A stretch of 64,000 nt of DNA from Candidatus Bathyarchaeota archaeon (GTDB lineage Archaea; Thermoproteota; Bathyarchaeia; 40CM-2-53-6; RBG-13-38-9). The stretch's first letter is position 1, and every line of letters begins with the position of its first letter. The position numbers and the translations under genes were made by a program. Under the pieces are notes generated by a model. The model saw nothing but the letters and a program-made list of their open reading frames with translations. It had not been told where the DNA came from and searched no databases. The stretch lies in assembly GCA_963807605.1 (NCBI GenBank), contig CAWECG010000001.1, positions 512,001-576,000 of the forward strand. The letters run 5' to 3'. Shown here piece by piece: positions 1-56,323 of the stretch.

Positions 1-2610
1 TGCCCGCGCAGTGCGCTTCTTAAATTGATCTATGGGGCTTCTGGTGAAAGTGATGCAAGGTTTGCTATCGGGACTGTAACGCACTCCGTGCTCGCTGAGC
101 TTGGGCGCGTTGAGGCTACCATTGTAGATGAAACGGATCCCGCCTTGCCTGTCGATGTTGTTGCTCAGCAGGTCTATCAGCAATGGTTGGAGGCCGCAGA
201 GGCCAAGATCGCGGACTCCTGGCGACTCTTCGCAGATGCTCGTATAAGCGTGCGGGAGGGCAAGAACGCTGTTCTTGAGAGGCTCAACGGTTTCTCACGT
301 CACCTAGCCGAAGAGATCCTCGCAGGATATCGTAGGCCGGACAGAATCGTTACTGGTCATCACATTACGAATCTCGATCTACCGCTTCAAGGAATCCCTG
401 ATGAATATAGAGTGTACAGCAATCCGTTGCATATTGAGATTCGCGAATTCAAGAGCTATGGAGGCTCTGCAGTCAGTGAGACGAATAAGTTGCAAGCTTG
501 TGGATATCAGCTTCTGTTGGAACAGATCTATCCTGATGCTGATTTTACAATTAGAGTGCTTTCCACAGACGACATTGTCAATGTCCGAATGACTGACAGC
601 AGACGTAACAAGCTTCATCAAGGTATTGCTGCTTTGCAGGAGATCTACGAGACCGCTCGAGGATCTGCACGACCGATTCCTCAACTTTGCGAAGTCTGTT
701 CAGTCAATAACGCCTGCAAATATTACTTCAATGATAATCTGCCAAAGCATATCAGGAGGTACCTGTGGCGGCTACGGATGGAGACCTTGGAAGACAAAGG
801 ACAAGATCAAGAATGGAGGTGGAGGAGCAAGATTCTCCCTCTAAACGTGAGAGTCGAGTTAGGATACTCTGATGGCGGTTACAGCATATCTGAGAAACAA
901 CCACGCAGCGTCCGCCTCTCGAAGGTTGAACCCGTCAACAACTTCCTACCTGGAGATACAGTAATCGTTAGTGGCGGCGACCCGCTGGCGACACCAAACT
1001 TCACAGGCGAAGTCTCAGATTTGGAGGAGAAGTTCATAACAATCACACCATATGGCGATCTGCCTCTAGGTCTACCCGATGAAGGATTGACAATAGACCA
1101 TTATGATGTCGATCTAACACGCCGTCAGCTCAGATCCATAGACATAGTCCATCGGTCAACCGGTCGAGCTGGTGAACTTGTAAGGCGAATCCTAGGGATT
1201 GAGAGCCCAAGAAGCGCAACGACATCGGGGGTTATTGGTTTTCTTGGAGATCTCAATCAAGAACAACAACAGGCTGTGAGATTATCCATGAATGCCCCGG
1301 ATTTCGCGGTAGTCCTTGGGCCTCCAGGAACAGGTAAGACAGCTGTGATAGTAGAAATACTAGCGCAGCTTGCAAGAGAAGGAAAACGAGCTCTGGCCGT
1401 TTCGGTTACCAACACAGCGGTCGATAATATTGTTGAGAGGCTCCTCGATCAAGGACATAAGTTCGGTATTAGATTCGGAAACTGGTACAAGATCAGAGAG
1501 CGTGCACTTCAAGTTGCTCTGATAAACATAGTCACGAATGAGGAAGATCGTGCACTCGCAGCCGTTGAAAAGATGGGCACTGCAGCGGCAGTCCTGACCA
1601 CCTGCAGTAGCGCTTCGCTGGATCTTGTTAAAGCAGGGCGATTTGACGTAGTTCTATTCGAGGAGTCCAGTCAGATCAGAATGCAAGACGCTTTTGCAGC
1701 ACTTGTCCAAGGTGAAAAGGTAATCATAATAGGTGATGACAAACAGCTTTCCCCTGTCTCCCGACTTCACAAACAAGTGAGCAGCCTTCTCGAGATAGCT
1801 TTAGAGACATTGGAAAGGCATAATCTCAGTCAAGAGCTAGTAACTCAACTTAAGGTTCAATATAGGATGCAGAAACAGATTTGCGAACTTATAAATCGCA
1901 AATTCTATGGGGACACACTCCTATCATCGCCCACCATTGAAAAAAGACCCTCGCTCCCAACGCCAACTCAACTCACTGGCCTGCTGCAACTGGACAATGC
2001 TCTAGATCCAGATATTGCCGTCGCAGTAATCAATGTCGAGGGAATAGAGGAGTACCGTGGGCTTAGCGTCTTGAATCGTGCAAATCTCGAGGTTGATACA
2101 CGCCTTGTCAATTCTCTCAGGTCAGCTGGATTGACTTCGAGTCAGATAGGTTTGATTACCCCCTACAAGGAACAACAGCGACTACTCTCAGCGAATCTTG
2201 CTGATGTAGTCGATATTGGAACTGTTGACAGTTTCCAAGGCCAGGAAAGAGCTGTTGTGATTCTTGATCTTGTGAGGGCTAACCCTGAAAGGAATGTTGG
2301 ATTCACACTTGATCCTAATAGGCTGAACGTCGCTCTAAGTCGCGTGCGTGAGAAACTTATCATTGTAACCAATCTGCCGACCTTTCAGGGTCACGAACAA
2401 TTTGACCAGGTGATGGAGATAATCAGGTCACTGCCAGGCACATGCATGGAAGGAATAACAGCCAGGCAAATTGGAATACAACTACCAGAGTACCGAAGAA
2501 GAATCGAGATGCAAGTCACACCCAGAATGGTAGATGTCGTGAATGAACCAGAAGAGTTGCCTCCAACAGCACCCATTTCCCCAGCAGGAAACTACATCGA
2601 TGTCTACTAA
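1..2610 (+). CDS. Dna2-like protein: N-terminal Cas4/RecB-type Fe-S PD-(D/E)xK nuclease fused to SF1B (Upf1/Dna2) helicase; 5' end outside window
   Basis: Frame is open from base 1 (CPRS..). Nuclease motifs CPR, GTVTH, GIPD, EFK, QACGY and CxxCxxxxxC. Helicase motifs GPPGTGKT, TNTAVDN, EESSQ, GDDKQL, QYRM, TPY, TVDSFQGQE, RLNVALSR. Confidence 0.85.
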   Translation, partial: CPRSALLKLIYGASGESDARFAIGTVTHSVLAELGRVEATIVDETDPALPVDVVAQQVYQQWLEAAEAKIADSWRLFADARISVREGKNAVLERLNGFSRHLAEEILAGYRRPDRIVTGHHITNLDLPLQGIPDEYRVYSNPLHIEIREFKSYGGSAVSETNKLQACGYQLLLEQIYPDADFTIRVLSTDDIVNVRMTDSRRNKLHQGIAALQEIYETARGSARPIPQLCEVCSVNNACKYYFNDNLPKHIRRYLWRLRMETLEDKGQDQEWRWRSKILPLNVRVELGYSDGGYSISEKQPRSVRLSKVEPVNNFLPGDTVIVSGGDPLATPNFTGEVSDLEEKFITITPYGDLPLGLPDEGLTIDHYDVDLTRRQLRSIDIVHRSTGRAGELVRRILGIESPRSATTSGVIGFLGDLNQEQQQAVRLSMNAPDFAVVLGPPGTGKTAVIVEILAQLAREGKRALAVSVTNTAVDNIVERLLDQGHKFGIRFGNWYKIRERALQVALINIVTNEEDRALAAVEKMGTAAAVLTTCSSASLDLVKAGRFDVVLFEESSQIRMQDAFAALVQGEKVIIIGDDKQLSPVSRLHKQVSSLLEIALETLERHNLSQELVTQLKVQYRMQKQICELINRKFYGDTLLSSPTIEKRPSLPTPTQLTGLLQLDNALDPDIAVAVINVEGIEEYRGLSVLNRANLEVDTRLVNSLRSAGLTSSQIGLITPYKEQQRLLSANLADVVDIGTVDSFQGQERAVVILDLVRANPERNVGFTLDPNRLNVALSRVREKLIIVTNLPTFQGHEQFDQVMEIIRSLPGTCMEGITARQIGIQLPEYRRRIEMQVTPRMVDVVNEPEELPPTAPISPAGNYIDVY

Positions 2611-3883
2611 CAGCGCAAAACCTGATTTCAAATTCATCCATCTTGCTGATACACATTTGGGGCTTAATTGGCCCGCGATCGGAAGACACGAAAAGATCCA
2701 GATTCCTGTCTACGGAAAAGCCTTCGCAACGATAGTGGATGCTGCAATAGAGCAGCATGTTGACTTTGTCGTCCACGCGGGAGACCTCGTCGACCGACCT
2801 CGCCCCCCAACAACTGCTTGGAACAGACTCCTCCAAGAACTTCCAAGACTAAAAGAAGCTGAAATTCCCTTTATCATAACGGTTGGATCGCACGATAAAC
2901 CAGAATCGTACTTTGATAGAGCAGGCGGAGACGTCCTTCATCTGCTTGATTCAAGACTGGGTCTGGTGAGAAGGGTTGACACGGATCAGGATCCATTTGT
3001 AAACATCAACACGAAGGGCGGCAAGAAGGTCACAGTCTACGGTCTAGGTGATCATGGTCGAGAACAGGTGGAACACTTACAACAGCTAAGCAAGCACATG
3101 AATGAAGAAAACGATTTTAGCGTTCTTCTCATGCACGGATCAGTATCTTCAATATCGCCAGTAATCGGCCCCATTATCGAGACTGAGACAATTAGCCAAC
3201 TTCTATCCAAGAGATATGTAGACTATGTTGCACTAGGACACAATCACAAGAGATGGGAGCACAAAGACCTGCATATCTATAATCCAGGTTCTCCCGAGTA
3301 CACGAGTTTTGCCGATGCTCCGACAATAACATACGTGATAGATGGAACAACCCTGAAAGAAGATAGCCGAGAGCCAGCCGAACATGGCTACTACCTTGTA
3401 GAGGTTACAGGAGAAATTGTCAAAGCACAATTCAATACGCTGCCAACTAGAGATGTAAAGAATATCCAAGTGAGATTCAACAGGGCTTCACCTTCTCAAG
3501 TGATTGAAGGATCCAAAAAGGCAATCTCCCAGAATATGTCCGATTCAAGTATTATACGCCCTATCCTAAGAGGTACACTACATCCTTCCGCGTCCAGAAG
3601 TGAGATCGACATTCGCGAGATTCTAGCACTCAGGGAGAAAATACTATTCCTCGATTACCCACTAATCGATCTTGACGATGCCCCGGTTAAGATTCAGGCC
3701 GCGGAAGGATCCATTCAGCGGCTTTTCAATCAATATTTAGAATCTAAGCTAGGACAAAATGCTAAAGAAATCTCGGATATCGCGGTGAAGCTTCTAGAAC
3801 TCTACGCCCATAAGAGCAGGACAACGAATCAAGAAGCACTGAGCCTTATTGATGGGTGGCATCCAAATGATAAGAAGGCTTGA
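2600..3883 (+). CDS. mre11: Mre11/SbcD-family metallophosphoesterase nuclease
   Basis: Motifs DTH, GDLVD, GSHD, GHNH, NPGS; ATG at 2600 overlaps the helicase stop; adjacent to rad50. Confidence 0.85.
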   Translation: MSTNSAKPDFKFIHLADTHLGLNWPAIGRHEKIQIPVYGKAFATIVDAAIEQHVDFVVHAGDLVDRPRPPTTAWNRLLQELPRLKEAEIPFIITVGSHDKPESYFDRAGGDVLHLLDSRLGLVRRVDTDQDPFVNINTKGGKKVTVYGLGDHGREQVEHLQQLSKHMNEENDFSVLLMHGSVSSISPVIGPIIETETISQLLSKRYVDYVALGHNHKRWEHKDLHIYNPGSPEYTSFADAPTITYVIDGTTLKEDSREPAEHGYYLVEVTGEIVKAQFNTLPTRDVKNIQVRFNRASPSQVIEGSKKAISQNMSDSSIIRPILRGTLHPSASRSEIDIREILALREKILFLDYPLIDLDDAPVKIQAAEGSIQRLFNQYLESKLGQNAKEISDIAVKLLELYAHKSRTTNQEALSLIDGWHPNDKKA

Positions 3884-5969
3884 GCTGCGCAACTTCGCTA
3901 CACATCAAGATACGGAGATAGAGTTTGGAGGCGGAAAGAACGTCATCATTGGTGCGACAGGCTCAGGCAAGACAAATCTTCTGCAGGCATTGGACTTTGC
4001 CTTCATGGGTGAGGTGCCAGGAGCCAGCTTAGCAGAACTGGTTGCAGATAATTCTGATACAGCAGAAGTGATACTTGATTATGTCGAACCAAGAACAGGC
4101 CAGAACTATAGAATACACCGAATCTTGACTCGCGAAGCGGACGGAAAACTCAGCCATGAGTGCTCGCTGACAAATATCGATACTAACGAAACAGTCAAGA
4201 AACCGATACCTGTTCAGACGATGCTGGAAACACTTGGAGTCGTACCATCCGTATTTAGACATGTTATCCATGTCGCACAAGGAAGCTTCTCTGAGCTACT
4301 CGAAGAGACTCAAGAACGCAAGAATACTATGGATAGACTCTTCGAGATATCACAGCTTGAGATAGCTTATCAAGAACTGGGCCACCAAGGCGGCCCTATA
4401 AACCAGATAGATTTAAGAAAACACGGCAATCTCCAGAAGAAAAGCGGACTTGAAGCAATTGCCTCCACACTAGACAATGAGAGAACACTCCTTGGAAGAC
4501 TACTCAAGGAACGAAACGAAAAACAGTCAAATCTGCACGAAATCACGAAGGAACACGATAGACTCGAACAGACATCCAAAAAGAACTTGGAAACACTATC
4601 AGCACTTCAGCATCTCGAACAAAAAATTAGATTTGCAGGCGCCATCTTTGCAAGTAGCTTGGAACAAGAAAAAAGACTGACCTCAAAACTGCGTCAATTA
4701 CTCGCGGAGGAGATTTGCAACACAATAGAGAAGCAGACATCAACCGAAACCATGGCCTATCTTGGAACTGTCAAAGCAAATCTCAACAAACTACAAGCGG
4801 AAGTCAATTCTCTTAACGAAACCCATAGGCGGATTGTTGAACAGGTCGCCTCCAATCTATCACAAACTAATCTCACCTTAGAAGAGAAGACAAATGCCTC
4901 TAACCAGATAACTGTAATTCAGACATATCTGGAGGGTAAAGGCGAACAGCCGCAAATCGAATGTGACAAATGTGGCAGCCTACTCACCAAGAAACAATGG
5001 GAGAGGCACATCAAGGACAAACAGAAGGAATTGGATAGCCTCAAGAAGAAGATCACTGAACTCCGCGAGAAAAATGAGACAGACAAGAGCCTTGCTGACA
5101 ATTGCCTGAAGAAGCTGGAGGAAACTGACTCCAACGTTAGAAACCTTACGAATGTAGCTCTTTTGTTGGAACAACTTATCACACCACGTAAAGAACTCGA
5201 GAAAGCCTCAGTTTCTCAGACGCAACTAGAGTTAGACAGAGCCAAACTTGTTAATGAATTGAGGATCATGTTGCAAGCCGAACCCACAGCAGCCGATCAA
5301 GAGATCATGGATCAAGCCCTTACGCTTCGGCACAGGATTGAGACATTAACCAGACAAGTTTCCGACTTAACTAACGACTTGCAACGGTATGATGAGAATC
5401 ATCTGAAACCTCAAGAGAAGCGTGTCGCAGACGCACAGGAAGCAGTGGTTCAACTTAGGAAACTCGAACCTGAGATCAAACTAGATGAACAAAGAATATC
5501 ATTGCTGCAGATGATAAGAGCCGCTTTGAGAGAGATCCAACCTGCCGTACGAAGGAACTTCGTCTCAAGGATTACTCAAAGTGCGAATGATTACCTTGCA
5601 CGGCTTTATGGTGGTTCTGAGATACGGAACTTTGAACTTATGGATGACTATGAATTCTTTGTAACGAGGGCAGGATACAGGCGACACGCCAACAGGCTAA
5701 GCGGAGGTCAACAAGTCCTTGCAAGCATGGCATTCCTCCTAGCTCTGAGCGAAGTACTGAGCCAGCTAGATTTCCTCATTCTTGACGAACCAACAACACA
5801 CCTTGACACAAACAGAAGAATAGAGCTTGTAACAGTTCTCGAGAACCTGCGGCGCGTTCCCCAGCTCATAATAGTCGATCATCACCCAGAACTATTTGAG
5901 GCAGCGGACACGCGTTTTCGAATCTCACTTACCCCAGAGGGGCATAGTCAACTAGATCAGCTTAACTAG
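3867..5969 (+). CDS. rad50: Rad50/SbcC ABC-type ATPase with coiled coils and zinc hook
   Basis: Walker A GATGSGKT, Q-loop, central CDKC hook, signature LSGGQ, Walker B LILDEPT, H-switch; overlaps mre11 by 17 bp. Confidence 0.9.
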   Translation: MIRRLELRNFATHQDTEIEFGGGKNVIIGATGSGKTNLLQALDFAFMGEVPGASLAELVADNSDTAEVILDYVEPRTGQNYRIHRILTREADGKLSHECSLTNIDTNETVKKPIPVQTMLETLGVVPSVFRHVIHVAQGSFSELLEETQERKNTMDRLFEISQLEIAYQELGHQGGPINQIDLRKHGNLQKKSGLEAIASTLDNERTLLGRLLKERNEKQSNLHEITKEHDRLEQTSKKNLETLSALQHLEQKIRFAGAIFASSLEQEKRLTSKLRQLLAEEICNTIEKQTSTETMAYLGTVKANLNKLQAEVNSLNETHRRIVEQVASNLSQTNLTLEEKTNASNQITVIQTYLEGKGEQPQIECDKCGSLLTKKQWERHIKDKQKELDSLKKKITELREKNETDKSLADNCLKKLEETDSNVRNLTNVALLLEQLITPRKELEKASVSQTQLELDRAKLVNELRIMLQAEPTAADQEIMDQALTLRHRIETLTRQVSDLTNDLQRYDENHLKPQEKRVADAQEAVVQLRKLEPEIKLDEQRISLLQMIRAALREIQPAVRRNFVSRITQSANDYLARLYGGSEIRNFELMDDYEFFVTRAGYRRHANRLSGGQQVLASMAFLLALSEVLSQLDFLILDEPTTHLDTNRRIELVTVLENLRRVPQLIIVDHHPELFEAADTRFRISLTPEGHSQLDQLN

Positions 5970-5978
5970 CCTAACGTA

Positions 5979-6299
5979 CTATTTTCCCGCGTGCGCAGAA
6001 TGGTGCGGGGAGTGGGATTTGAAGCGAGTACGCCTTAGAGCAAGCATGGTAACTGTGAGCGAGGCCACGAGTGGGAAGATGTATATGGGATACTCTGGAA
6101 TCGGCGTTGAGCCCGCAAACGCATACACCTTACCATCATATGAGCCTACGTATACAACGGTTCCTGAAACAGCAGGAGAAGAATTGACGTTGTTGCCTGT
6201 TGTGTAACTCCATACCTTGGCTCCTGTAGTAGCATTCAACGCATACACATTATCATCCACTGAGCCTACGTACACGATACCTCCTGAAACAGCAGGAGA
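5979..6299 (-). pseudogene. 3' fragment of a PQQ-like beta-propeller surface protein with IPEYP-TM-basic C-terminal anchor
   Basis: Two SPAVxxGxVYVGSxDxxVYA repeats, then IPEYP, a hydrophobic stretch and RRTR. The reading frame loses homology exactly at the (CG)5 run 6300-6309. Confidence 0.75.
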
Positions 6300-6376
6300 C
6301 GCGCGCGCGTTCATGCATCGAAAATACAGCCGAATGTTACCTGACGAGCTATCATGATCACTCCTGTAAGCTAGCG

Positions 6377-6482
6377 GCGAGCGTAGCGAGCCGGTACTAA
6401 AAGAAAGAGAGGGTTTGGGAGATTCTTCTCCCAAATTGAGGGGGGAAGAGATTGTGTTTGTGCTCACCAAGGGGCACACAAC
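6377..6482 (-). repeat. TGGTGAG-box repeat, alpha arm (copy a); inverted partner of 8621-8788
   Basis: GCGAGCGTAGCGAGCC..AGAGAGGGTTTGGGAGATTCTTCTCCCAA..TGTGCTCACCAAGGGGCACACA matches the reverse complement of 8621-8788. Confidence 0.85.
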
Positions 6483-6516
6483 TGTAATGGCTAGCTAAGG
6501 TTAAGGACGTTCGTAA

Positions 6517-7062
6517 CTATGGCAGTCCTGGCTGACTCGGTGGTAAGGCGAATTTTATGAATGGAAAGCCTGTAGCCACATGACAGTTATTGCATCCTTC
6601 TATTCCATTGTTGTATGCTGTCTCGAACTGATTCCAATCCTTCGCGTCTATAGCCTTGTCCAGAGGGTCGAGGTAGGCACTTTCGAAAGCCTTGAGTAAA
6701 GGCGCTCTCCCCGGCCTCGTAGTCTCCCCCACCTCCTGTATCTCCCTAGCTTCTGTCAACTGGTATTTTGCAAGATCCCAATTACCAGCCTTAGCTGCAT
6801 AGTAGATTTCATAATATCTCTGGCCGTACTCGATCATTACAGTGCCCAACCCAGGCTGAAGTTCAGCAATCTGGCCCAATGTCAGATTACCATGCGAAGT
6901 TTTCAACGTAACGTTTTCAGCTCCACTGTAGGGTAGCTGCGAAACTTGAGCAGCTCGAAAGTTCAAGACCAAAGATGTGGTTGCAACTCCGAGAGCCACA
7001 AACGCAATGATTATTGCAACAGCAATACTACGTTGCATAATAGATTGATTTTTCAATGGCAA
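6517..7062 (-). CDS. Membrane-anchored monoheme c-type cytochrome-like protein
   Basis: N-terminal hydrophobic helix, helical body, C-terminal CNNCH heme motif. Confidence 0.6.
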   Translation of the reverse strand: MPLKNQSIMQRSIAVAIIIAFVALGVATTSLVLNFRAAQVSQLPYSGAENVTLKTSHGNLTLGQIAELQPGLGTVMIEYGQRYYEIYYAAKAGNWDLAKYQLTEAREIQEVGETTRPGRAPLLKAFESAYLDPLDKAIDAKDWNQFETAYNNGIEGCNNCHVATGFPFIKFALPPSQPGLP

Positions 7063-7167
7063 ATTTAAGCTTGGTGTGCACTTAACACAGCGTGTGCGCT
7101 AGAAACCATAAACTATCAAACTTTCAACAATTACAGCCATACATTATGTTTGTTGCCTGTGTGTTCT

Positions 7168-7316
7168 GCGAGCGTGGCGAGCAGTCATCATTGGTGGGTT
7201 GTGTGGCCTTATCTGGTGAGCACACACCACACAGCGAAAGCAACCCTCACGGACTTAACAGGACCATGGCTTGATGTATGTGTGGGTCTACTGGTGCGGG
7301 CACTGTAATTGAACCG
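7168..7316 (+). repeat. Two degenerate TGGTGAG-box repeats (copies b, c)
   Basis: GCGAGCGTGGCGAGC (7168), TGTGTGG..CTGGTGAGCACACAC (7200-7227), TGTGTGGGTCTACTGGTGCGGGCACTGTAATTGAACCG (7279-7316). Confidence 0.7.
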
Positions 7317-7367
7317 AATGACGGAAAGCATATTACGAGCACAGGTGTAGGAGGAGTAAGATGTGTC

Positions 7368-7655
7368 ATGAAATTCCTACTACGATTGCATATGCCAACA
7401 GAACACGGAAACAAAATGCTACAAGACCCCAACTTTCCAAAGAAACTAGAAGGCGTCCTCAACCAGATCAAACCTGAGGCAGTATACTTCACCCCAATCG
7501 AAGGCGAACGGGGCATCTACATGATAGTCAACCTGCCCAGCGCCGACATGATCGCAACAATAACCGAACCACTCTGGATGACCTTCAACTGCAAACTAGA
7601 TATTCAACCAGTCATGGAGCTAAAGGACCTACAACTAGGACTGCAAAAGAAGTAA
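7368..7655 (+). CDS. Small conserved hypothetical protein (GYD/DUF3303-like dimeric alpha-beta barrel)
   Basis: GGAGG upstream of ATG 7368; KPEAVYF..GERG pattern; followed by a hairpin and T-tract. Confidence 0.6.
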   Translation: MKFLLRLHMPTEHGNKMLQDPNFPKKLEGVLNQIKPEAVYFTPIEGERGIYMIVNLPSADMIATITEPLWMTFNCKLDIQPVMELKDLQLGLQKK

Positions 7656-7719
7656 ACTTACAGTGGGCTGTGCCCCACTCTCCCCTTTTTCCTTCATCAT
7701 TATTACAAAGACGTCTGTG

Positions 7720-7797
7720 ATTTGAACCGCCGTTTCAGGCGTTTTTCGTGTGTGTGCTCACCAAGGGACACACACAACCTGGTCTAACGGTTCAAAT
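7720..7797. repeat. 78-bp MITE-like unit (copy d) with 10-bp terminal inverted repeats and internal GTGTGTGT/ACACACAC hairpin
   Basis: ATTTGAACCG...GTGTGTGTGCTCACCAAGGGACACACAC...CGGTTCAAAT. Confidence 0.8.
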
Positions 7798-7872
7798 TCT
7801 AAACGCCCTCACCATCTGTTGCACATGTTTTTTTTAAGGAAGTTGCTTGTCCCTATTCTAGGGAAGTCTGCA

Positions 7873-8553
7873 ATGGAACTTGATTTGGATTCATGGGAAC
7901 AACGAGTCGCGAATCCAAAGGCGTTGGGTGATGCAGGGAAGACTCTGTGGAAGAAAATACAACCTGTTCTCAACGACGTTTTGGATGAGATAAAAAAGAA
8001 CGGGAGAATTGAAACAATTTACGTAAAAGCTGAGATGGACAGACTCAGTGGCCCAATCAAAATGCTTGAAGAAATAACCGCAACTTACAACACGGTAATC
8101 CATATCTTTGAGAGACCGCAGGAAGAGCGGTTGCGATTCTTCCAGGCAATCCAACCATTCGGTTTCGAAGAAGCTAGTGTGACCCACATGCATCTAACGT
8201 TGGCGGTAGCGATCACTGTTCTTTCAACAGAACTCTTCAAGCTAGTCCTGCTATTTCATATGAAAGATGTAAGCCCTGATGTCTCAAAATTCAATATCAC
8301 AATGCAAAGTTCTGCTCCCAAAACTTGGCCGCTGCTCAAGCTTTTCGTTGACAATGATTTTCGCAACGCCTTAGCGCACGGTACGTACGCTATTGTCAAC
8401 AAGAAGATTGTCCTCTACAGGGATACAACGCTGATTCCATTTGAGGAAATGGAGCTTCACGAGTTCATGATGAGGAGCAAAGATCAGAATGTGCTGTTTC
8501 ACTGCCTCTTCCATGTCTTAGCGGCTAAGAAAAGATTGGGCTTCTTCACTTGA
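7873..8553 (+). CDS. Hypothetical helical protein with HEPN-like RxxxxH motif
   Basis: 226-aa ORF; FRNALAHG near the C-terminus. Confidence 0.55.
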   Translation: MELDLDSWEQRVANPKALGDAGKTLWKKIQPVLNDVLDEIKKNGRIETIYVKAEMDRLSGPIKMLEEITATYNTVIHIFERPQEERLRFFQAIQPFGFEEASVTHMHLTLAVAITVLSTELFKLVLLFHMKDVSPDVSKFNITMQSSAPKTWPLLKLFVDNDFRNALAHGTYAIVNKKIVLYRDTTLIPFEEMELHEFMMRSKDQNVLFHCLFHVLAAKKRLGFFT

Positions 8554-8596
8554 TCAGTTCGATTAACCAGACTTAGATCCGAAGAATGTGACTTCT

Positions 8597-8788
<192 letters not shown>

Positions 8789-8860
8789 GAGAGATGCACA
8801 CACAACGACGCGCGCGCTAAAGATCTTTAGACATCAAGTAACAGAAAGGTTGTCTTGCGA

Positions 8861-9250
8861 TTATGTTACTTTGATTGATTTTCGTCCTTCCCAGAGACCG
8901 TGTAGGTTGCAGTATTCCACTGCGTAGATCGTGCCACCTTTGTCGAGTTTCAGGTTCAGTCTGATATCTGGTTCACTGTAGACGGGCACAAGGTTCACTG
9001 CCGTTAGGAGAACTGGATTGAATGATCTGGTCTCTTCGTGGAGGTATATCTCAATTCTCCTTATCGAGTGTTCTACTGTGTTGGGGTGGGGACCGACGGT
9101 GATTCGAACTTCGAATGGTTTTCCAGCTGTGATTGTGTCCGGGGCGGTTATTTTGGGGGTGTGTGACTCGACTTTGCTGATTGCTTCACCTGCCGCGGTC
9201 TCAGGCGTGTATATCATTTTACCAAACGCATCCATCTTGTCCTCACTCAT
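8861..9250 (-). CDS. Class II superoxide reductase-like (SORL/desulfoferrodoxin Fe-binding domain) protein
   Basis: ESHTP, HPNTVEHSI and YCNLHGLW motifs. Confidence 0.8.
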   Translation of the reverse strand: MSEDKMDAFGKMIYTPETAAGEAISKVESHTPKITAPDTITAGKPFEVRITVGPHPNTVEHSIRRIEIYLHEETRSFNPVLLTAVNLVPVYSEPDIRLNLKLDKGGTIYAVEYCNLHGLWEGRKSIKVT

Positions 9251-9409
9251 CTCCTATATTTAGTGTCAATCATCTTATGTAAACCTAGCGTGGACTGGCT
9301 AGTGCGCGCTTTCAGCTTTCATTTAGTTCATTTAGACGTACTTTGATACTAAGGCGAGTATGCCTCTGCATTCAATAATTGGGAAGATCCTCTCCTCCAC
9401 ATCAGGGGG

Positions 9410-9706
9410 ATGTCTCCTCTCTCAGAAATCGATTTGGATCTAGTTGACTGGAAGATACTGAAGATAGTTGAGAACGATAGCTCAATCACTGACACAGCAA
9501 TCGCAGGAAAGGCCCGCCTAGATAGAGGCCCTGTATTGGGCAGACTCAAGACTCTTGAAACTCACGGATACCTGAGGCTTCAGTGGATAACAAATGCTGG
9601 TTTGAGAATTTGTGGGGCCTATCTAACGACCAAAGGAATCGAACTATTGTATAAAAGAGATAGGGATTCAGAAAAGACTCGCTTGGAAAGATCTCGTCTA
9701 GACTAA
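9410..9706 (+). CDS. Winged-helix (AsnC/Lrp- or MarR-like HTH) transcription regulator
   Basis: LDLVDWKILKIV..IA...RLKTLETHGYL..LTTKG pattern. Confidence 0.6.
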   Translation: MSPLSEIDLDLVDWKILKIVENDSSITDTAIAGKARLDRGPVLGRLKTLETHGYLRLQWITNAGLRICGAYLTTKGIELLYKRDRDSEKTRLERSRLD

Positions 9707-9765
9707 ATCATGTTCTTGGTGCTCTCTTCTGATCTATCTAGATCAGGGAAAGTGAGAGCATCCAG

Positions 9766-9805
9766 AATTGAACCGTTAGGTATTGGTGTGTGTGCTCACC
9801 AGCTA
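9766..9805 (-). repeat. TGGTGAG-box repeat, beta arm (copy f)
   Basis: Reverse complement reads TAGCTGGTGAGCACACACACCAATACCTAACGGTTCAATT, nearly identical to 56324-56361. Confidence 0.85.
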
Positions 9806-9895
9806 TGGCCAAGACCGAATCGCTGCACCGAAGTATCACACTCAAATACTCATCATTTGATAGGTCTCAATACAATCTAAACGTAGTGATGCTTT

Positions 9896-10312
9896 GTGAT
9901 AGAAAATGTGAAGCCTGAAATCATAGAGGCTATGCTTGACGCCATGCCAGTTGAGATATCGTTTGTTGATGAGAATGACCAAGTGAGATACTTCAACAAG
10001 AATGGCAACAGAATCTTTCCAAGACCTAGAAGCATAGTAGGTAAGAAAGTTCAGCAATGTCATCCTGGAAAAAGCTTACACATCGTTGAGAAGATACTTC
10101 AGGATTTTAGAAACAAGAGCAGGAAGAGTGCACCTTTCTGGATAGACCTTAAGGGAAGAAAGATACTGATCAGGTACTTTCCAGTTTGGGATAAGGAAGG
10201 AAACTACAAAGGTTGCTTAGAGGTGTCTGAAGATATCACCGACGTGCAGAAGCTGACAGGTGAGAAGATACTTCTGGACGAAGAAACCACTGAAGCTTCC
10301 AGCAAGACCTGA
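9896..10312 (+). CDS. Stand-alone PAS domain protein (PAS_10/DUF438 C-terminal-like)
   Basis: LDAMPVEISFVDENDQVRYFN..IFPRP..VGKKVQQCHP motif. Confidence 0.8.
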   Translation: MIENVKPEIIEAMLDAMPVEISFVDENDQVRYFNKNGNRIFPRPRSIVGKKVQQCHPGKSLHIVEKILQDFRNKSRKSAPFWIDLKGRKILIRYFPVWDKEGNYKGCLEVSEDITDVQKLTGEKILLDEETTEASSKT

Positions 10313-10330
10313 AGCAGTGATAAATGTCAC

Positions 10331-10437
10331 ATGTGTGTGTGGGTCCCTTGGTGAGCACACACACACACACACAACAAAAAAAAATCAACGCCTAACGGTT
10401 CAAATTACAGCGCTCTCACCAAGGGATACACACACAT
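10331..10437. repeat. Full symmetric unit of the TGGTGAG family: box-beta arm-core-gamma arm-inverted box (copies g, h)
   Basis: ATGTGTGTGTGGGTCCCTTGGTGAG(CA)n..GCCTAACGGTTCAAATTACAGCGCTCTCACCAAGGGATACACACACAT. Confidence 0.9.
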
Positions 10438-11577
10438 TACCCACTCGACTGAATGCATGAGAAAAGAATACCCTGCAGTTCTTGCACTTTTAGCATCAGG
10501 TTTGCTGTTTCCATTCTTAAAGGATTCTCTCATTTTCTCGATCTCAACGCTCACTTGAGCTGAAAATATTTCTAGGTTTAATTCCATCAATCCATTGACT
10601 TTGCGAACCTCAGCCTCGTACTCCGAGAACTGTGTGTCAAGTTCCATGCTTCGTATCAGGAAGTCAGCTATATCCTTCTTAGTTTCGTATCCCTCATAAG
10701 TTCTTGTCCAGTTGCTCAAGAGATCGTATTTCAAAGGACGATATTCCGGAGAAGTCAGCTCGCTTACACCAAAGAATCTCTTAAAATTCATCTCTAGAGG
10801 CTCATACAGTTCCTTATTAAGATCCTTTTGAATCTCTCCTACTCTTTTTAAAATATAGTCAGGTTCGATATCATCCCATCTTTTCAAACAAGATTGAAAA
10901 TTACCGACCAACTCCTCGTCGATTACTCCTCCATCCAAATTCGGAAAGTTCTTCTTCTCTTTCATAACTATTCGACCTATCCTCTCTCGTATTGTTTGGC
11001 GTGTCCGAATATCGATTCTGCCGATGGGCATTCCTGGTTTCAGTGTGGAGCAGAAATCTGAAAATCGTTTCTTGTTTTGCTGATCTGCTTGACATAACAC
11101 GTCCTTTATTCGATCTGGCTTCACAGGTTTGAAATCAAAGTTCTTCTTCCAGTCGCAAAATTTCAAAGATGAGTTAACCTCGACTATCAAGCACTCTTTA
11201 TCTCTAATTGGAACGTACGTCGTTTTTTCTAATTGTTTGCCATCAATCTTGAGGGAATAATCGTGCATTTTGAAAAAGGGTCTGAACTCCTTTGAGCAAT
11301 TAAACTCTATATTAGGCCTGAAGGCGCCAGTACGAGGACCATGATTGAGGTATACAAGTCTAGTTGGGGTAAACCCAAATCTGTCTGGAATGAAGTGGTT
11401 GAAGTAATCTTGGGGAATTCTGTCCAGTACAAATTCTGGTTTCTCACAGATCTTTATGTCGGGACCCCTAAGCCTCTGACTGAGCTCAAAGAAAGCGATG
11501 ATCACCGTAAATGCCGTAAAGATAGCGATAATGGCATTCGAGTATTGATTCAAGATATCAAGGAGAGTTTGGACCAC
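10405..11577 (-). CDS. Hypothetical membrane-anchored protein; likely +1 indel near 10520, probable true stop ~10437 abutting the repeat
   Basis: N-terminal TM helix, 390-aa ORF; an alternative-frame tail (ESLRMETANLMLKVQELQGILFSCIQSSG*) ends at the repeat boundary. Confidence 0.6.
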   Translation of the reverse strand: MVQTLLDILNQYSNAIIAIFTAFTVIIAFFELSQRLRGPDIKICEKPEFVLDRIPQDYFNHFIPDRFGFTPTRLVYLNHGPRTGAFRPNIEFNCSKEFRPFFKMHDYSLKIDGKQLEKTTYVPIRDKECLIVEVNSSLKFCDWKKNFDFKPVKPDRIKDVLCQADQQNKKRFSDFCSTLKPGMPIGRIDIRTRQTIRERIGRIVMKEKKNFPNLDGGVIDEELVGNFQSCLKRWDDIEPDYILKRVGEIQKDLNKELYEPLEMNFKRFFGVSELTSPEYRPLKYDLLSNWTRTYEGYETKKDIADFLIRSMELDTQFSEYEAEVRKVNGLMELNLEIFSAQVSVEIEKMRESFKNGNSKPDAKSARTAGYSFLMHSVEWVMCVYPLVRAL

Positions 11578-11800
11578 GGTTTTTCTCCGTCTTCACAAGT
11601 TTTGTGCCCAGATGTGTTCCGAGGCCCTTGATTATGTTGTTGCAGATGGGACATCGGGAACCTTTGTAGAAATAGTGAGCCGCGCCGACGGCTAACCCCC
11701 GTAGACCATCTACAGCACCGCCCAGAACTAGATCTGAGGTGCCTTTCTTCGGTTCAACCCATCTTTGGCAATATGGACAGTATTCCAATGTTGGGAACAT
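11558..11800 (-). CDS. Small CxxC...CxxC (LITAF-like zinc ribbon) membrane-associated protein
   Basis: CPYC..hydrophobic Gly-rich stretch..CPIC. Confidence 0.55.
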   Translation of the reverse strand: MFPTLEYCPYCQRWVEPKKGTSDLVLGGAVDGLRGLAVGAAHYFYKGSRCPICNNIIKGLGTHLGTKLVKTEKNRGPNSP

Positions 11801-11891
11801 CTCCGCTAGGGTTCTTCAAATATTGACATATTCGGACTAAGGGATAATCAGCATTTTGTTGATGGTCCGGGCGCAAACGCAGATTCATATT

Positions 11892-12578
11892 CTACGCCTT
11901 CTCCGCCTGTTCCATGAACTTCTTAGCCAGTTCCTTGTCTCCCTGATCAAGCGCTTTCATTGCGCTTCGCAGAAGTTCATCTTTAGTCAATGGAACTGTT
12001 TCAGATTTGGCCTTGCCTAAAGGTTTAAACTCAAGAATTCGACCTTTCAATTTCTGAATGAACTCACTGGAATCCTCATCCCGCAAAAGTAACTCTAATC
12101 TTTGAGACCGTGTTACTAAGATCAGTCTTGTCTTTTGCTGGACATCTTTCTCAACCTCTACATCATCAATGTCTTTGTAGCCTATTCGCCAAGACTGGTC
12201 ACCGAAAAGGGAAGATCCACATTCAAACCATATTGCATCTCTGCCTAGACTAGCAGACCCATGAAAGACTCCTCTTTCGTGAGGACGCTCTGCCACAATT
12301 GTCATATCTCTCTTCTCCTTCTCCTTGCCTGACGTACCTGTAGTACTGATTACATCTTTGGTCAGTGACGGTCTCAAAGTTGGCTGAGCTTTTGGACGCG
12401 CAGCGGCAGCATATATGAGGGCACCTAACAATCCTGTGAAGAAGGTCAGAGCTATCCATGCTTCTCTATTCTCCTTATCTTCACTGCCCTTAATGACGGC
12501 TATCAGGGGTAGAAGCCAGAGAATAAAAGCAATGGCGCCCCAAAGAAGTGTGATTCCAGAATAATTGTATAAGGGCAA
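11892..12578 (-). CDS. Membrane protein with PLDc_N-like N-terminal hairpin, PH-like middle and conserved C-terminal tail (paralog 1)
   Basis: WIALTFFTGLLGALIY; tail PLTKDELLRSAMKALDQGDKELAKKFMEQAE shared with 12759-13421. Confidence 0.7.
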   Translation of the reverse strand: MPLYNYSGITLLWGAIAFILWLLPLIAVIKGSEDKENREAWIALTFFTGLLGALIYAAAARPKAQPTLRPSLTKDVISTTGTSGKEKEKRDMTIVAERPHERGVFHGSASLGRDAIWFECGSSLFGDQSWRIGYKDIDDVEVEKDVQQKTRLILVTRSQRLELLLRDEDSSEFIQKLKGRILEFKPLGKAKSETVPLTKDELLRSAMKALDQGDKELAKKFMEQAEKA

Positions 12579-12610
12579 TTGTTCTCCAATAACAGTCTAC
12601 CACGAAAGCC

Positions 12611-12626
12611 GCAGATTTAAGACTTG
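12611..12626 (-). promoter_or_regulatory. Candidate BRE/TATA promoter (CAAGTCTTAAATCTGC)
   Basis: Identical 16-mer at 42050-42065; both copies lie ~30 bp upstream of a minus-strand TTG start. Confidence 0.5.
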
Positions 12627-12758
12627 GTCACTGAAGTTCGCTCTTACCTCCGCTATTATGTCTCCCTGAAAAAGCCGATGTCTATTTGTGATTGAGGCTT
12701 TCGAGTCGAAGATAGCGCGCGCGGGAAGTTAATGACTTGATAGAGTCTAGGCTTTCAA

Positions 12759-13421
12759 CTAGCTAATTGACTCTGCCTGGTCCATGAATCTCTTTGCGAG
12801 CTCTTTGTCTCCTTGGTCTAGTGCTTTCATGGCGCTTCGTATGAGTTCCTCTTTGGTTAACGGTGTTGTTTCACGCTCGTTCATCTCTTGAATTCGAGGC
12901 AGTGCTTTTATTTCCATAATTGTGGACCGCCACTCTTCTGAGTTAAGGCCCAATTCACCCCAAACAGAAAACCCGCCAGCCCAATCATATGTGTAGGCAG
13001 CCCCGTTCTGAAGTTGGATAATCATCCTATTTCCCCCTTTTTTCATTTCGACATTAGAGATTGAGCTGACAGGGTAGGTATGGTGTCCGCTGGTACCTTT
13101 CATTGGATTGAATGCCATTAGGGTGCCGTCAAGAGACAGCCTGCCCAATACATTGGATTCTTGGTTCCTGCATATTGACTTGAGCAAGCGTGCGCTAGAA
13201 GGTGATGGAGTACCCGTAGGTGATGGTGCTACCTCAGCCTTCTGGGGGCGAGACGCGGCCCAATATATGAGAGCGCCTAACAATCCTGTGAAGAAAGTCA
13301 GGGCGATCCATGCCCCTCGATTCTCCGCATCTCTACTGTCCACGATGACATCTACGAGAGGAAGAAGCCAGAGAAAAACCGAACCTATAACACCAAGCAC
13401 AATCATGATGCCATAATCCAT
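12759..13421 (-). CDS. Membrane protein with PLDc_N-like N-terminus and conserved tail (paralog 2)
   Basis: Same N- and C-terminal blocks as 11892-12578, unrelated middle. Confidence 0.7.
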   Translation of the reverse strand: MDYGIMIVLGVIGSVFLWLLPLVDVIVDSRDAENRGAWIALTFFTGLLGALIYWAASRPQKAEVAPSPTGTPSPSSARLLKSICRNQESNVLGRLSLDGTLMAFNPMKGTSGHHTYPVSSISNVEMKKGGNRMIIQLQNGAAYTYDWAGGFSVWGELGLNSEEWRSTIMEIKALPRIQEMNERETTPLTKEELIRSAMKALDQGDKELAKRFMDQAESIS

Positions 13422-13536
13422 TCACAACCCCCTGCCTGGTCGGAGATCCAGTGGTCGTGCGCGCGCGCGTCCGAAGATCAATGCCCACCAATTCAGAATA
13501 TTCCTCTCTTGAGCCCGTCGTCGGTCGTCGTTTTTG

Positions 13537-13577
13537 GTGTGTGTGTGTCCTTTGGTGAGAGCACTCTAATTTGAACC
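13537..13577 (+). repeat. TGGTGAG-box repeat, gamma arm (copy i); inverted partner of 10397-10435
   Basis: 35/39 identity to the reverse complement of GGTTCAAATTACAGCGCTCTCACCAAGGGATACACACAC. Confidence 0.85.
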
Positions 13578-13827
13578 CATGAAGGTCTCCACCACAGGAA
13601 GTGAGTGCCAGCGCGCGCTTGCCTTGATAACTCGTCTGACATCCGCGGGACCGCAGAATAGTCCTCTCTCCAAGGAACGGCGCTGACAAATATTACGCAT
13701 ACGCGTAAATACAGCCAGGTGTTCCACTCACCATAATAGATCGCTTTTCTTTAGGTTTCTAGAGTGTGTATTTGCTGGGTTTTGAAGCGTACGTCTCGCA
13801 ATTGATGCCGGTGGAGTTCTGTGGAAG

Positions 13828-19189: not shown

Positions 19190-19284
19190 CTAAGAATCGT
19201 ATTGATATCACAGACCTAAAAGAGTATGCTGAATCTTAGTCTTGCTACGTGGCTTACGCACGCGCTATATCGATGTTCGCGCGC

Positions 19285-20389
19285 AGGGTTGTCCCGATAT
19301 TCTTTGAGTTGACACGGAAAGATCCATAAGGGTTGAGCCCCGCACCCTTCTACTTGGAGGAGATTCCAGATAGAAGGGTACGAGACTCTGGAGTCACTGC
19401 TGAGTAATCTGGATTTATCATTTGTTGAACGTCTAGTTGTTAGTTGCTATCATCAAGAAGGTCCAGGTAAACCTCCACGTAACCCTCTAGGACTCTTCAA
19501 GGCACACCTTGCCAGACGCTACCTCAGAATAAACAGTCTGCGTGAGCTTGAACGTCGCTTATGGATCGATGAGCGGCTACGTGACATATGCGACATAAGA
19601 TATGAGGAGCCAGCCTACGGTAGGACGGTACTCTCAAGATTCAACCAGCGACTAGGAACAAGAAGACTAAGACGCATAGTAAACAAACAGGTCAAGAAAT
19701 TACTGAAGAAGCGCTATGTAACACCAAGAATAGTTGCTATGGACGCCACCTTCATCAAAGCCTACAGCAGACGAAACATAAACAATAGAACAGGCTTCAG
19801 TGACCCTCAAGCACGTGTAGGAAGAGCCTACCGCACATACGGGTTAGGCTACAAACTACACCTAACAGTCGATACAGACACAGCCACACCCCTAACATTC
19901 CTAGTGACACCAGCAAACACTAACGAGAAGAAACCGAGCATACCACTCCTCAAAATGACAGTTAAAACCACAGCAACCAGAATCCGACAGCTAACCGCTG
20001 ACAGTCAATACTCCAGCAACAGACTCAGAGAGACCGCTAAAAAACACAGAATCAAGACCGCGATACCCTACCCAGCCAACCAGAAACCTGAAAGACAAAA
20101 CATCCTCAGAGTAACCAGCGACTTCAAAACACACGGCCCAGAAAACCTCAAACACATCTACAATAAACGCTCCATCATCGAGTTGGTCTTCGCATCACTC
20201 AAAGAACACCTCAACCTCAACAACCACAAGACACGAGGACTAGAAAACATCACCATCCACATCAGCTACTGCATACTATGCCTCCTCTACACCATAGAAG
20301 CCTCACACAACACCAAACAACCCACCAAAACCAGAAGCATAACCTACTGGACAAACCTAACATGAAAACGCTAATAACGGGACAACCCC
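19285..20389 (+). mobile_element. Insertion sequence (IS5/IS1182-like DDE), ~1105 bp, 16-bp TIRs, inserted in a (GC)n site
   Basis: Left GGGTTGTCCCGATATT (19286-19301); right AATAACGGGACAACCC (20373-20388); flanked on both sides by GCGCGC. Confidence 0.9.
19370..20365 (+). CDS. DDE transposase (~331 aa; DUF772-like N-terminus + DDE_Tnp_1)
   Basis: Frame open from 19337; SLRELERRL..LSRF N-terminal domain, DAT, GYKLH, ADSQY, YxxRxxIExxF; possible ATA start at 19370 after GGAGG. Confidence 0.85.
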   Translation: MEGYETLESLLSNLDLSFVERLVVSCYHQEGPGKPPRNPLGLFKAHLARRYLRINSLRELERRLWIDERLRDICDIRYEEPAYGRTVLSRFNQRLGTRRLRRIVNKQVKKLLKKRYVTPRIVAMDATFIKAYSRRNINNRTGFSDPQARVGRAYRTYGLGYKLHLTVDTDTATPLTFLVTPANTNEKKPSIPLLKMTVKTTATRIRQLTADSQYSSNRLRETAKKHRIKTAIPYPANQKPERQNILRVTSDFKTHGPENLKHIYNKRSIIELVFASLKEHLNLNNHKTRGLENITIHISYCILCLLYTIEASHNTKQPTKTRSITYWTNLT

Positions 20390-20466
20390 GCGCGCTATTT
20401 GAAGCCGTTCAGATGAAAACACTGCTTTAATAGACGTGACGAATGAAATAATAGAGTGGAAATAAA

Positions 20467-56300: not shown

Positions 56301-56323
56301 CTTAGCGGGGTATGCCGTATACC

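Follow-up and report, generated by a model that had tools for sequence, protein, structure and literature searches.

Small gene cassettes between tRNA-like repeats in a Bathyarchaeia genome: a probable relationship to casposons

A 7.2-kb stretch of a Candidatus Bathyarchaeota genome, located in the 64,000-nucleotide window analysed here, consists of gene cassettes separated by short repeats that contain TGGTGAG. This heptamer occurs 19 times in the window, compared with 9.5 ± 3 times in shuffled sequences. The nine boxes of the original prediction, with orientations R,F,F,R,F,R,F,R,F, were all confirmed: 6463-6469 (-), 7214 (+), 7292 (+, TGGTGCG), 7757-7763 (-), 8638 (+), 9795-9801 (-), 10349 (+), 10415-10421 (-) and 13553 (+). 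Three more degenerate copies had been overlooked, namely 7808-7821 (-), a remnant at 9747-9756 (+) and a tRNA-end remnant near 5999-6030. The repeated unit is a 14-nt core of seven variable bases plus TGGTGAG. That these repeats bound gene cassettes was borne out by the map of the stretch:

6377-6462, minus strand: solo alpha end, assigned to an enzyme-less element family, with GT/CA tip (6453-6462), hairpin (6412-6437) and subterminal motif GCGAGCGTAGCGAGCC (6377-6392); the element body left of 6377 is cut off near a GC run at 6301
6463-6476, minus strand: core c1 (TGCCCCT+TGGTGAG)
6477-7206: cassette with a 181-aa ORF on the minus strand, without known family; CA tip at left, GCGAGCGTGGCGAGCA and GT tip at right
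7207-7220, plus strand: core c2 (CCTTATC+TGGTGAG)
7221-7284: 64-nt mini-insert with CA and GT tips, flanked by two direct cores
7285-7322, plus strand: landing pad of core c2b (TGGTGCG variant) and a degenerate tRNA-like dock
7323-7756, plus strand: cassette with a 125-aa ORF without known family; dock-like remnant (7716-7730) and GT tip (7748-7756) at its right end
7757-7770, minus strand: core c3 (TGTCCCT+TGGTGAG)
7771-7821, minus strand: landing pad of CA tip, spacer and dock (7771-7807) and the dock's own core c3b (7808-7821)
7822-8630, plus strand: cassette with a 267-aa ORF without known family; GCGAGCGTAGCGAGCC (8597-8612), spacer and GT tip at its right end
8631-8644, plus strand: core c4 (TATCTTC+TGGTGAG)
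8645-8795, plus strand: solo alpha left end with (CA)34, hairpin and GGCTCGCTACGCTAGCC, followed by a GC run at 8810
8861-9706: cargo of a desulfoferrodoxin-type gene (8861-9250, minus) and a winged-helix regulator (9410-9706, plus)
9747-9794, plus strand: core remnant c5b, dock (9757-9779), spacer and GT tip
9795-9808, minus strand: core c5 (CCATAGC+TGGTGAG), with unique DNA beyond
9809-10341, plus strand: PAS_10-domain gene segment with a GT tip at the right only
10342-10355, plus strand: core c6 (GGTCCCT+TGGTGAG), a direct repeat of c8 (12/14 bases)
10356-10428, minus strand: landing pad of (CA)9, A-run, dock (10392-10414) and the core c7 (10415-10428) that belongs to this dock; the pad is located immediately within the left tip of the unit 10356-13545
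10429-13545, minus strand: four-gene cargo (390 aa, 80 aa and two paralogous PLDc_N-type membrane proteins); CA tip at left, (CGT)n run then GT tip at right
13546-13582, plus strand: landing pad of core c8 (TGTCCTT+TGGTGAG) and dock, followed by a GC run at 13611

The cores stand in both relations to each other. Direct pairs are formed by c6 and c8 (12/14) around 10356-13545, by c1 and c3 (13/14), and by c2 and c2b around the 64-nt insert. Inverted cores flank four cassettes (6477-7206, 7822-8630, 9809-10341 and 10429-13545), and the six dock-less cores of the window alternate strictly. No ORF of 5979-13421 contains a Cas1 domain, and the units of the window could therefore only be non-autonomous.

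The sequences next to the boxes had been described as three alternative arms, alpha, beta and gamma. All three exist, but beta and gamma are not alternatives: they overlap in GGTTCAAAT and form one 23-nt unit, the dock, of which they appear to be the two halves, together mimicking the 3' end of a tRNA. Read as CTCACCA plus the seven variable bases, the core would represent the last three acceptor bases, the discriminator A and CCA, followed by a 7-base trailer, and the dock seems to imitate the T-loop and the acceptor strand. In 44 of 50 docks, the spacing from TGGTGAG to AWTTGAA is exactly 9 nt, which is tRNA geometry (T-loop, 5 nt, 7 nt, A, CCA). The pairing of the T-stem is lost (0-3 of 5 pairs), and neither ARAGORN nor Rfam gave a match to a dock as a real tRNA gene. 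Relative to a forward-read core, the dock lies to the right 45 times and to the left once.

The CA and GT runs, found at the bounds of every window cassette, can be interpreted as the end tips of elements. Such tips are (CA)n/(GT)n in the stretch and (CGA)n, (CCA)n or GGGGATATAG elsewhere in the genome. Alpha looks like the inverted end, ~90 nt long, of a single family of elements without an enzyme, with a constant polarity of core, CA tip, hairpin and GGCTCGCTACGCTCGCC in all copies. A complete enzyme-less element with both alpha ends (~90-nt inverted repeats) and direct cores was found at C1:137965-139040, and a second complete enzyme-less element with direct cores at C3:455400-455930. The inverted pairs of like arms that had been proposed are real (69 nt at 84%, 34 nt at 74% and 40 nt at 90%), but they are not specific partners, because each arm is closer to copies elsewhere than to its supposed mate. 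Positions 13540-13610 share 97% identity with C3:50490-50560, and 8705-8796 share 89-90% with C1:137965 and C4:16610 and only 81% with 6375-6462.

Genome-wide, about 134 core copies were counted in 2.65 Mb, as against 11 in the 7.2-kb stretch. Nearly all are intergenic; 11 of the 134 fall within ORFs of at least 120 aa, although such ORFs make up 78% of the genome. The seven variable bases differ strongly among the cores of one run, and the inserts between cores range from 6 nt to 10 kb, with very short inserts between direct cores both at 7221-7284 (64 nt) and elsewhere in the genome (35-60 nt). Among long matched-tip intervals with direct cores, 8 of 13 have cores that differ by at most one of the seven variable bases, where the background rate is 0.275.

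The original prediction took the boxes for sites at which a tyrosine or serine recombinase, encoded elsewhere, makes crossovers that capture or invert the cassettes as in pdif modules or shufflons. In pdif/Xer modules, each site has a 6-nt spacer between two conserved binding arms of 11 nt, and the sites alternate strictly in orientation; a shufflon produces inversion isomers in the population by means of an adjacent dedicated recombinase. The strict alternation of the dock-less cores and the four cassettes between inverted cores fit this explanation, as do the recurrence of one cassette with the same rare core variant and the position of two of the five tyrosine-recombinase genes, 0.3-0.6 kb from a core (C1:288226 and the broken gene C2:56541). 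However, core orientation is random across the genome: adjacent cores are arranged as RF 27, FR 25, RR 27 and FF 22 times, or 52 alternating versus 49 same, a result that the prediction had itself named as counting against an inversion system. Nor was the proposed resemblance of the GTGTGTG/CACACAC arms to a tyrosine-recombinase site supported. The runs that flank cores are interchangeable, being (GT)n, (CGT)n, (GGT)n or CTATATCCCC, and the CA runs vary from 4 to 34 units, so that they are not fixed binding arms. The dock is one-sided, and the arm pairs are not mutual closest relatives. A domain search of the ORFs found no recombinase gene in or beside the stretch, and the other three tyrosine-recombinase genes lie 3-22 kb from any core. 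Recombinase crossover sites are thus a very improbable explanation. Of the earlier proposal, an enzyme encoded elsewhere stands, its only intact candidate being a Cas1, and the tyrosine-recombinase type does not.

Like pdif modules and integron arrays, the stretch holds small accessory-gene cassettes separated by short repeated sites, whose orientation in this window alternates as in pdif modules. Unlike those systems, it lacks conserved paired binding arms and follows no rule of orientation across the genome, the search for tyrosine-recombinase genes found no Xer- or IntI-type gene in the arrays, and the junctions have transposon-type tips and duplications. An integron, which has an IntI gene and attI beside an attC array in one orientation, does not fit the mixed orientation and the lack of a tyrosine recombinase gene at the arrays.

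Two cassettes of the stretch recur elsewhere. Positions 6464-7110 are 98% identical to C3:41385-42032, where the copy begins at the core and stops at a GC run. Both copies of this 181-aa cassette have the same rare core variant, which suggests that either the core moved with the cassette or the block was duplicated as a segment. Positions 7822-8612 are 97-100% identical to a stretch within C3:454502-455407, with different flanking docks, tips and cores. The pad at 13546-13582 recurs with 47 nt of flank at C3:50496. Similarity between cassette copies stops at repeat modules and GC runs. Elsewhere, nadA-nadB-nadC and TBP are among the ordinary genes that lie as cargo between cores, and some intervals may therefore be mere chromosome between insertions.

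These boundaries and the ordinary metabolic genes would also be expected of a passive mosaic of short intergenic repeats (REP/BIME- or MITE-like), spread by an unknown enzyme and shuffled by ordinary recombination or end-joining, with the casposase only occasionally using the same tRNA-like site. The random core orientation agrees with such a mosaic, as do the 298 occurrences of GCGCGCGC (~25 expected), which sits at truncations within the stretch, and the strong hairpin folds predicted for inverted tips and cores (-19.8 kcal/mol, z = -4). On the other hand, a complete Cas1 element and several complete enzyme-less ones bear the marks of a transposon, namely inverted tips with direct 14-nt copies, and the repeats track casposase genes across genomes. 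Y1/HUH transposase genes, expected for a REP family, are not located at cores: the four PF01797 matches (C5:72411, C4:558457, C4:76255 and C4:636953) have no flanking cores, which speaks against REP/BIME repeats with a RAYT. The only insertion sequence of the window (19279-20396) has ends, GCGCGCAGGGTTGTCCCG, that are unrelated to the box, and decayed MITEs of this sequence likewise find no support. A passive mosaic is distinctly unlikely.

Only one enzyme gene was found between direct core copies that match perfectly, and it encodes a Cas1 of the casposase type. The canonical 9-kb element at C3:796420-805427 carries a 402-aa Cas1 between identical direct copies of GCTTTAGCTGGTGAG (15 nt, 15/15), with tips CGACGACGACG and CGTCGTCGTCG and a dock directly beyond the right copy. 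The best solved relative of this protein is the M. mazei casposase 6OPM (E 5.7e-72, residues 4-397); CRISPR Cas1 proteins matched at 1e-25 or worse. Of casposase-like Cas1 genes, the genome has a single intact one (C3:803495-804700) besides two fragments. No ORF of the 9-kb element contains a family-B polymerase domain, and the two PolB genes of the genome (PF00136 matches at C4:414041 and C3:239508) are far from any core. In the taxonomic family, all six genomes with at least three core+dock matches have a casposase match, compared with one of the nine others. In one of the related genomes (G013), a Cas1 gene lies ~1 kb from a CTATATCCCC tip, a core and a dock; in another (G002), one lies inside a CA-tipped interval with GGCTCGCTACGCGAGCC, whose flanking cores are inverted and of different classes.

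Taken together, the anatomy of the stretch, the 9-kb Cas1 element, the counts across the genome and the observed co-occurrence of repeats and casposase genes point to a stack of small cassettes that has been rearranged and whose members look like relatives of casposons, the transposons driven by Cas1, with cargo genes but no integrase of their own (probability about 0.72). The TGGTGAG boxes are most likely 14-base landing-site copies, with end tips and tRNA-like docking sites, from transposons driven by a Cas1 integrase. The 14-nt core would be the integration target, duplicated at each insertion. Some elements bear a dock and core just inside one tip, and each of these therefore would bring a new landing pad in either orientation, which may receive further insertions and let the array grow. 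The integrase would act in trans, and the window's CA-tipped cassettes would be mobilised by the casposase. What speaks against this reading is that the inverted cores around four cassettes cannot come from simple target duplication. Further counter-evidence comes from the CGA tips of the sole intact Cas1 element, which differ from the CA tips of the window, from the inverted cores around the Cas1 interval of G002, from the rare core variant shared by both copies of the 181-aa cassette, from the strong differences between the variable bases of cores in one run and from the ordinary genes among the cargo. The inverted cores may be secondary, through a flip of a core between its inverted tips, recombination between tips, intramolecular transposition, or integration of two single ends at pads that face each other.

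Family 2 casposons include the Methanosarcina mazei MetMaz elements and Aciduliprofundum boonei AciBoo-C1. The duplications that family 2 casposases generate are 14-15 bp long and lie at the extreme 3' end of a tRNA gene, of which 15-30 bp of upstream sequence is required, and tandem casposons with one shared duplication are known (PMC6977970, PMC4779613). The present system resembles them in its Cas1-type integrase, which is closest to the solved M. mazei casposase, in its inverted ends, in the repeated use of the same site, and in the choice of target, which is the 3' terminus of a tRNA-type sequence flanked on one side by upstream sequence. Direct 14-15-bp duplications occur at the Cas1 element, at the 8 of 13 matched-tip intervals and at c6/c8, c1/c3 and c2/c2b; they are absent at the four window cassettes between inverted cores, an arrangement shared by many cassettes here and unlike family 2. 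Other differences are the lack of a family-B polymerase in the Cas1 element, ends that are 8-12-nt simple repeats instead of the ~30-bp inverted repeats of published casposons, ~134 junctions per genome, most of them around small enzyme-less cassettes, and a target that the elements carry with them as a portable mimic of a tRNA, where family 2 uses a real tRNA gene.

Mimicry of a tRNA 3' end is also typical of the attachment sites of integrase-type elements that target tRNA 3' ends, and the arrays could be tandem remnants of these. In M. mazei, one tRNA-Leu site is common to integrase elements and casposons (PMC4779613). Direct dock+core units do occur in tandem (C3:454440-454556), and an integrase gene ends ~250 nt before an isolated dock+core (C1:288950-289008). 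Nevertheless, inverted terminal tips are present here and absent from integrase elements, only the 14-nt core and not the dock is repeated around complete elements, and most arrays have no integrase gene nearby. Attachment sites are scarcely probable at all.

The casposon-like cassettes share with MITEs mobilised in trans their shortness, inverted ends, target duplications and many copies against one or few enzyme genes; unlike MITEs, they carry one to four cargo genes and insert at one specific type of site, bringing a new copy along. CRISPR arrays are similar in the Cas1-family enzyme, the polar leader-like dock beside the repeat and the direct cores with very short inserts, and differ in that the repeat here is 14 nt, inserts reach from 6 nt to 10 kb and orientation is mixed.

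The known casposons are rare, large elements with a polymerase, and they are the proposed ancestors of CRISPR adaptation. Here, ~134 junctions per genome, along with many small cassettes that have portable tRNA-like pads, appear to be tied to an integrase of the casposase kind. Should this link be correct, Cas1 enzymes are able to assemble arrays of accessory genes, and these genomes would be a natural system for the origin of a repeat-insert-repeat array from a transposon. A further version, which is doubtful, is that a polymerase-less Cas1 integrase runs open-ended gene stacking, in which cassettes carry their own tRNA-mimic pad and each insertion provides the next site. The inverted cores would then stem from a reaction undescribed for casposases, for example two element ends joining two facing pads and replacing the DNA between them. 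If true, this would be an archaeal Cas1-based counterpart of the integron and a living model of the pre-CRISPR array. The literature searched yielded no paper on casposon-derived mini-elements or Bathyarchaeia casposons. For annotation, the finding accounts for a repeat family that breaks the assemblies of related genomes.

The array at 6377-13577 is best read, with a probability of roughly 0.7, as a rearranged pile of casposon-like cassettes, most of them lacking an enzyme, at landing pads that mimic tRNA ends. The source genome (G000) is archaeal, with 2.65 Mb in five contigs (C1-C5); an archaeal 16S gene is present, and an intron-bearing tRNA lies at 50586-50688 of the window. The nine boxes originally placed in the window were all verified in position and orientation, and three additional degenerate copies were found (7808-7821, 9747-9756 and about 5999-6030). 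The window contains 19 copies of TGGTGAG, whereas shuffled sequences give 9.5 ± 3. The core of the box is 14 nt long and consists of TGGTGAG preceded by seven variable bases, which fall into two main classes (CCWTAGC or TGTCCCT). Genome-wide, about 134 cores were counted using a two-mismatch scan that also required a recognisable arm. They avoid genes, since 11 of the 134 lie inside ORFs of at least 120 aa, although such ORFs make up 78% of the genome. Other readings of TGGTGAG (Shine-Dalgarno site, splice-site look-alike, group II intron end) were dropped, as nothing consistent was seen after the motif.

With TGGTGAG read forward, a core has on its left a (GT)n, (CGT)n or (GGT)n run, CTATATCCCC, or else unique DNA. 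On its right stands either the reverse complement of such a left-type tip or a 23-nt sequence, the dock (AGCAYNNNRATTTGAACCGTTAG), which lies to the right of the forward core in 45 cases and to the left in one. When reverse-complemented, the dock and half of the core reproduce the layout of a tRNA 3' end, namely a T-loop (TTCAAAT), 5 nt, 7 nt, A and CCA. This spacing is exact in 44 of 50 docks, T-stem pairing is lost, and searches of the repeats using Rfam and ARAGORN returned no tRNA or other RNA family. Of the three outer arms distinguished earlier, beta and gamma are the two halves of one dock; alpha is composed of a CA tip, a hairpin and GGCTCGCTACGCTCGCC, in this order outward from the core without exception. 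The inverted pairing of like arms is real, but the arms are family members only and not dedicated partners. Every junction reads (GT)n, core, (CA)n, i.e. a 14-nt loop between inverted repeats. The CA tips behave like expanding microsatellites: the tip at 8645-8712 is (CA)34 and comparably long runs occur at the tips at C3:39693, C4:17372 and C4:19423, against 4-5 units elsewhere. The 108-nt two-armed unit had no match in plasmid or phage collections.

Three complete elements outside the window are listed below.

Cas1 element and complete enzyme-less elements elsewhere in the genome
C3:796420-805427, 9-kb Cas1 element; tips CGACGACGACG / CGTCGTCGTCG, identical direct copies of GCTTTAGCTGGTGAG, dock immediately past the right copy
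C1:137965-139040, complete enzyme-less element; inverted alpha ends, direct cores
C3:455400-455930, complete enzyme-less element; inverted ends, direct cores, own dock and core at least 8 nt inside the CA tip

The 9-kb element encodes a Cas1 of 402 aa and no family-B polymerase was found in it. The best match of this Cas1 among solved structures is 6OPM (E 5.7e-72, nearly full length), with CRISPR Cas1 proteins at 1e-25 or worse. The structure 6OPM is the casposase of M. mazei. This enzyme targets the 3' end of tRNA-Leu, where it creates duplications of 14 bp, and it depends on about 30 bp of the tRNA sequence upstream; tandem casposons with one common duplication are also on record (PMC6977970, PMC4779613). 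Thirteen long intervals combine direct cores with matching tips; in 8 of these 13, the two cores differ in at most one of the seven variable bases, the background rate being 0.275. Ordinary metabolic genes can occupy intervals between cores, as nadA, nadB and nadC lie between two cores at G000:C3:43284-49787, one of them with a CTATATCCCC tip.

The window array is flanked by a Rad50-like gene (stop 5969) and a peptidase gene (stop 13828), and each unit between them has cores with CA and GT tips at its borders.

Units of the window array, in order
6377-6462, solo alpha end
Cassette with a 181-aa ORF, after the first alpha end
64-nt mini-insert at a landing pad, between the cassettes with the 181-aa and 125-aa ORFs
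Cassette with a 125-aa ORF, after the 64-nt mini-insert
Cassette with a 267-aa ORF, starting at a landing pad
Second solo alpha end, with (CA)34
Desulfoferrodoxin-type gene and winged-helix regulator gene, one unit
PAS-domain gene, unit before the four-gene unit
Four-gene unit, last in the array

The unit at 10356-13545 lies between the direct cores c6 and c8 (12/14 match), at a landing pad formed by c8 and a dock. It has its own pad (dock and c7) just inside its left tip, which is why beta and gamma seem joined at 10331-10437. Two cassettes recur elsewhere: 6464-7110 has a copy of 98% identity at C3:41385-42032, and part of C3:454502-455407 matches the cargo 7822-8612 at 97-100% identity, although the surrounding docks, tips and cores differ. 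No cargo protein matched defence-system families, and a search of metagenome contigs gave no relatives of the 390-aa cargo protein. On the minus strand, 11892-12578 and 12759-13421 encode paralogous membrane proteins whose N-terminus is of the PLDc_N type (77-78% DNA identity, in two blocks); the conserved 3' part of both genes has copies of 83-93% identity at C4:585513, C3:57915 and C2:66274, and in the related genome G002. At 13518-13545, runs of (CGT)n and (GT)n are separated by T5 but by no core, which looks like a nesting or fusion of ends from two types of element.

The original prediction had proposed a cassette capture or inversion system driven by a recombinase encoded elsewhere. Cassettes and an enzyme acting in trans are retained here; a tyrosine-recombinase or inversion system is not. 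Unlike recombinase binding sites, the arms flanking the core are variable in both sequence and length. No recombinase gene was found in the array, and of the five tyrosine-recombinase genes in the genome two lie near a core and three at 3-22 kb. At G000:C1:288226-289008, an isolated CA tip, dock and core stand about 250 nt beyond the end of a tyrosine-recombinase ORF of 405 aa, with a GGGGATATAG-type element end directly after them. HUH transposase genes were checked against the repeats and are unrelated. Alternating orientation does not hold as a rule: adjacent cores genome-wide are RF in 27 cases, FR in 25, RR in 27 and FF in 22, so that alternation is local to this window. Among dock-free cores, 35 adjacent pairs alternate and 25 have the same orientation.

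Four window cassettes (6477-7206, 7822-8630, 9809-10341 and 10429-13545) and the Cas1-bearing interval of G002 are flanked by inverted cores. Staggered-cut duplication cannot give inverted cores, so these flanks are not a simple target duplication. Elements that carry a pad would import cores of both orientations, which would cover only part of the pattern. Secondary routes may have contributed: a single core could have been flipped, tips could have recombined with each other, transposition could have taken place within the same DNA molecule, or two single-end integrations could have entered facing pads. A strictly nested parse, in which each element lies between direct cores, fails for the four cassettes. 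If only c2 and c4 were flipped, c1-c5 would all point the same way, but differences between their variable halves would persist; for both reasons the nested parse is not claimed.

Within the same taxonomic family, a casposase match was found in all six genomes with at least three core-plus-dock hits and in one of the nine others, a co-occurrence that is supportive rather than a formal test, since the genomes, being related, do not count as independent. The distance between a Cas1 gene and CTATATCCCC, a core and a dock is about 1 kb in G013, and in G002 a Cas1 gene lies within a CA-tipped interval carrying the alpha-type subterminal motif. On contig C262 of G001, weak homologues of the membrane-protein genes from the window lie close to a Cas1 fragment, and no cores were found there. 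As for synteny, the G001 contig stops some 130 nt beyond the Rad50-like gene; the G002 region neighbouring the peptidase gene is without repeats, but is only 73% identical.

GC runs of the type GCGCGCGC number 298 genome-wide, where composition would predict about 25. In the window they occur at 6301, 8810, 12715, 13459-13461 and 13611, plus 22 more. Within the array they sit at the cut-off points of elements or genes; those at 6301 and 13611 form the outer edges of the array, and the C3 copy of the 181-aa cassette also terminates at such a run. Because the runs mark several truncations, end-joining or another process has also reshaped the array. A 1,118-bp insertion sequence (DDE_Tnp_1) at 19279-20396, with at least six other copies of 92-100% identity, was compared with the repeats and is unrelated to them. 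Its outer ends, (TA)GCGCGC...GCGCGC(TA), are half of the dispersed GC palindrome; either it targets this motif or the motif stems from its ends.

Thirty nucleotides past the stop of the Rad50-like gene, at 5999-6030, lies a GC-rich remnant resembling a tRNA 3' end (TGGTGCG GGGAGTGGGATTTGAAGCG), which may mark the original landing site, or one left unused, at the array edge; a similar segment adjoins an array at C1:141268-141474. A PQQ-type beta-propeller gene fragment consisting of 120-bp repeats (6110-6308, minus strand) ends abruptly at a GC run. Copies of 80-88% identity are found in two places: C1:338738-339643, where the neighbour is a Cas1 fragment (C1:340629), and C3:456569-456874, within a CA-tipped element with direct cores. 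In the operon at 25-5969, a fusion of a Cas4-like nuclease with an SF1 helicase matches the Mokosh MkoA model; an Mre11-like phosphoesterase is also encoded, as is an SMC/Rad50-like ATPase of 706 aa (matching the LmuB and mad3 models). The operon may serve as a module of defence type and not in housekeeping repair. At 56321-57002 there is another small cluster of cores, which have CA tips and a dock-like arm, and one further core is located just beyond the window end at C1:576043.
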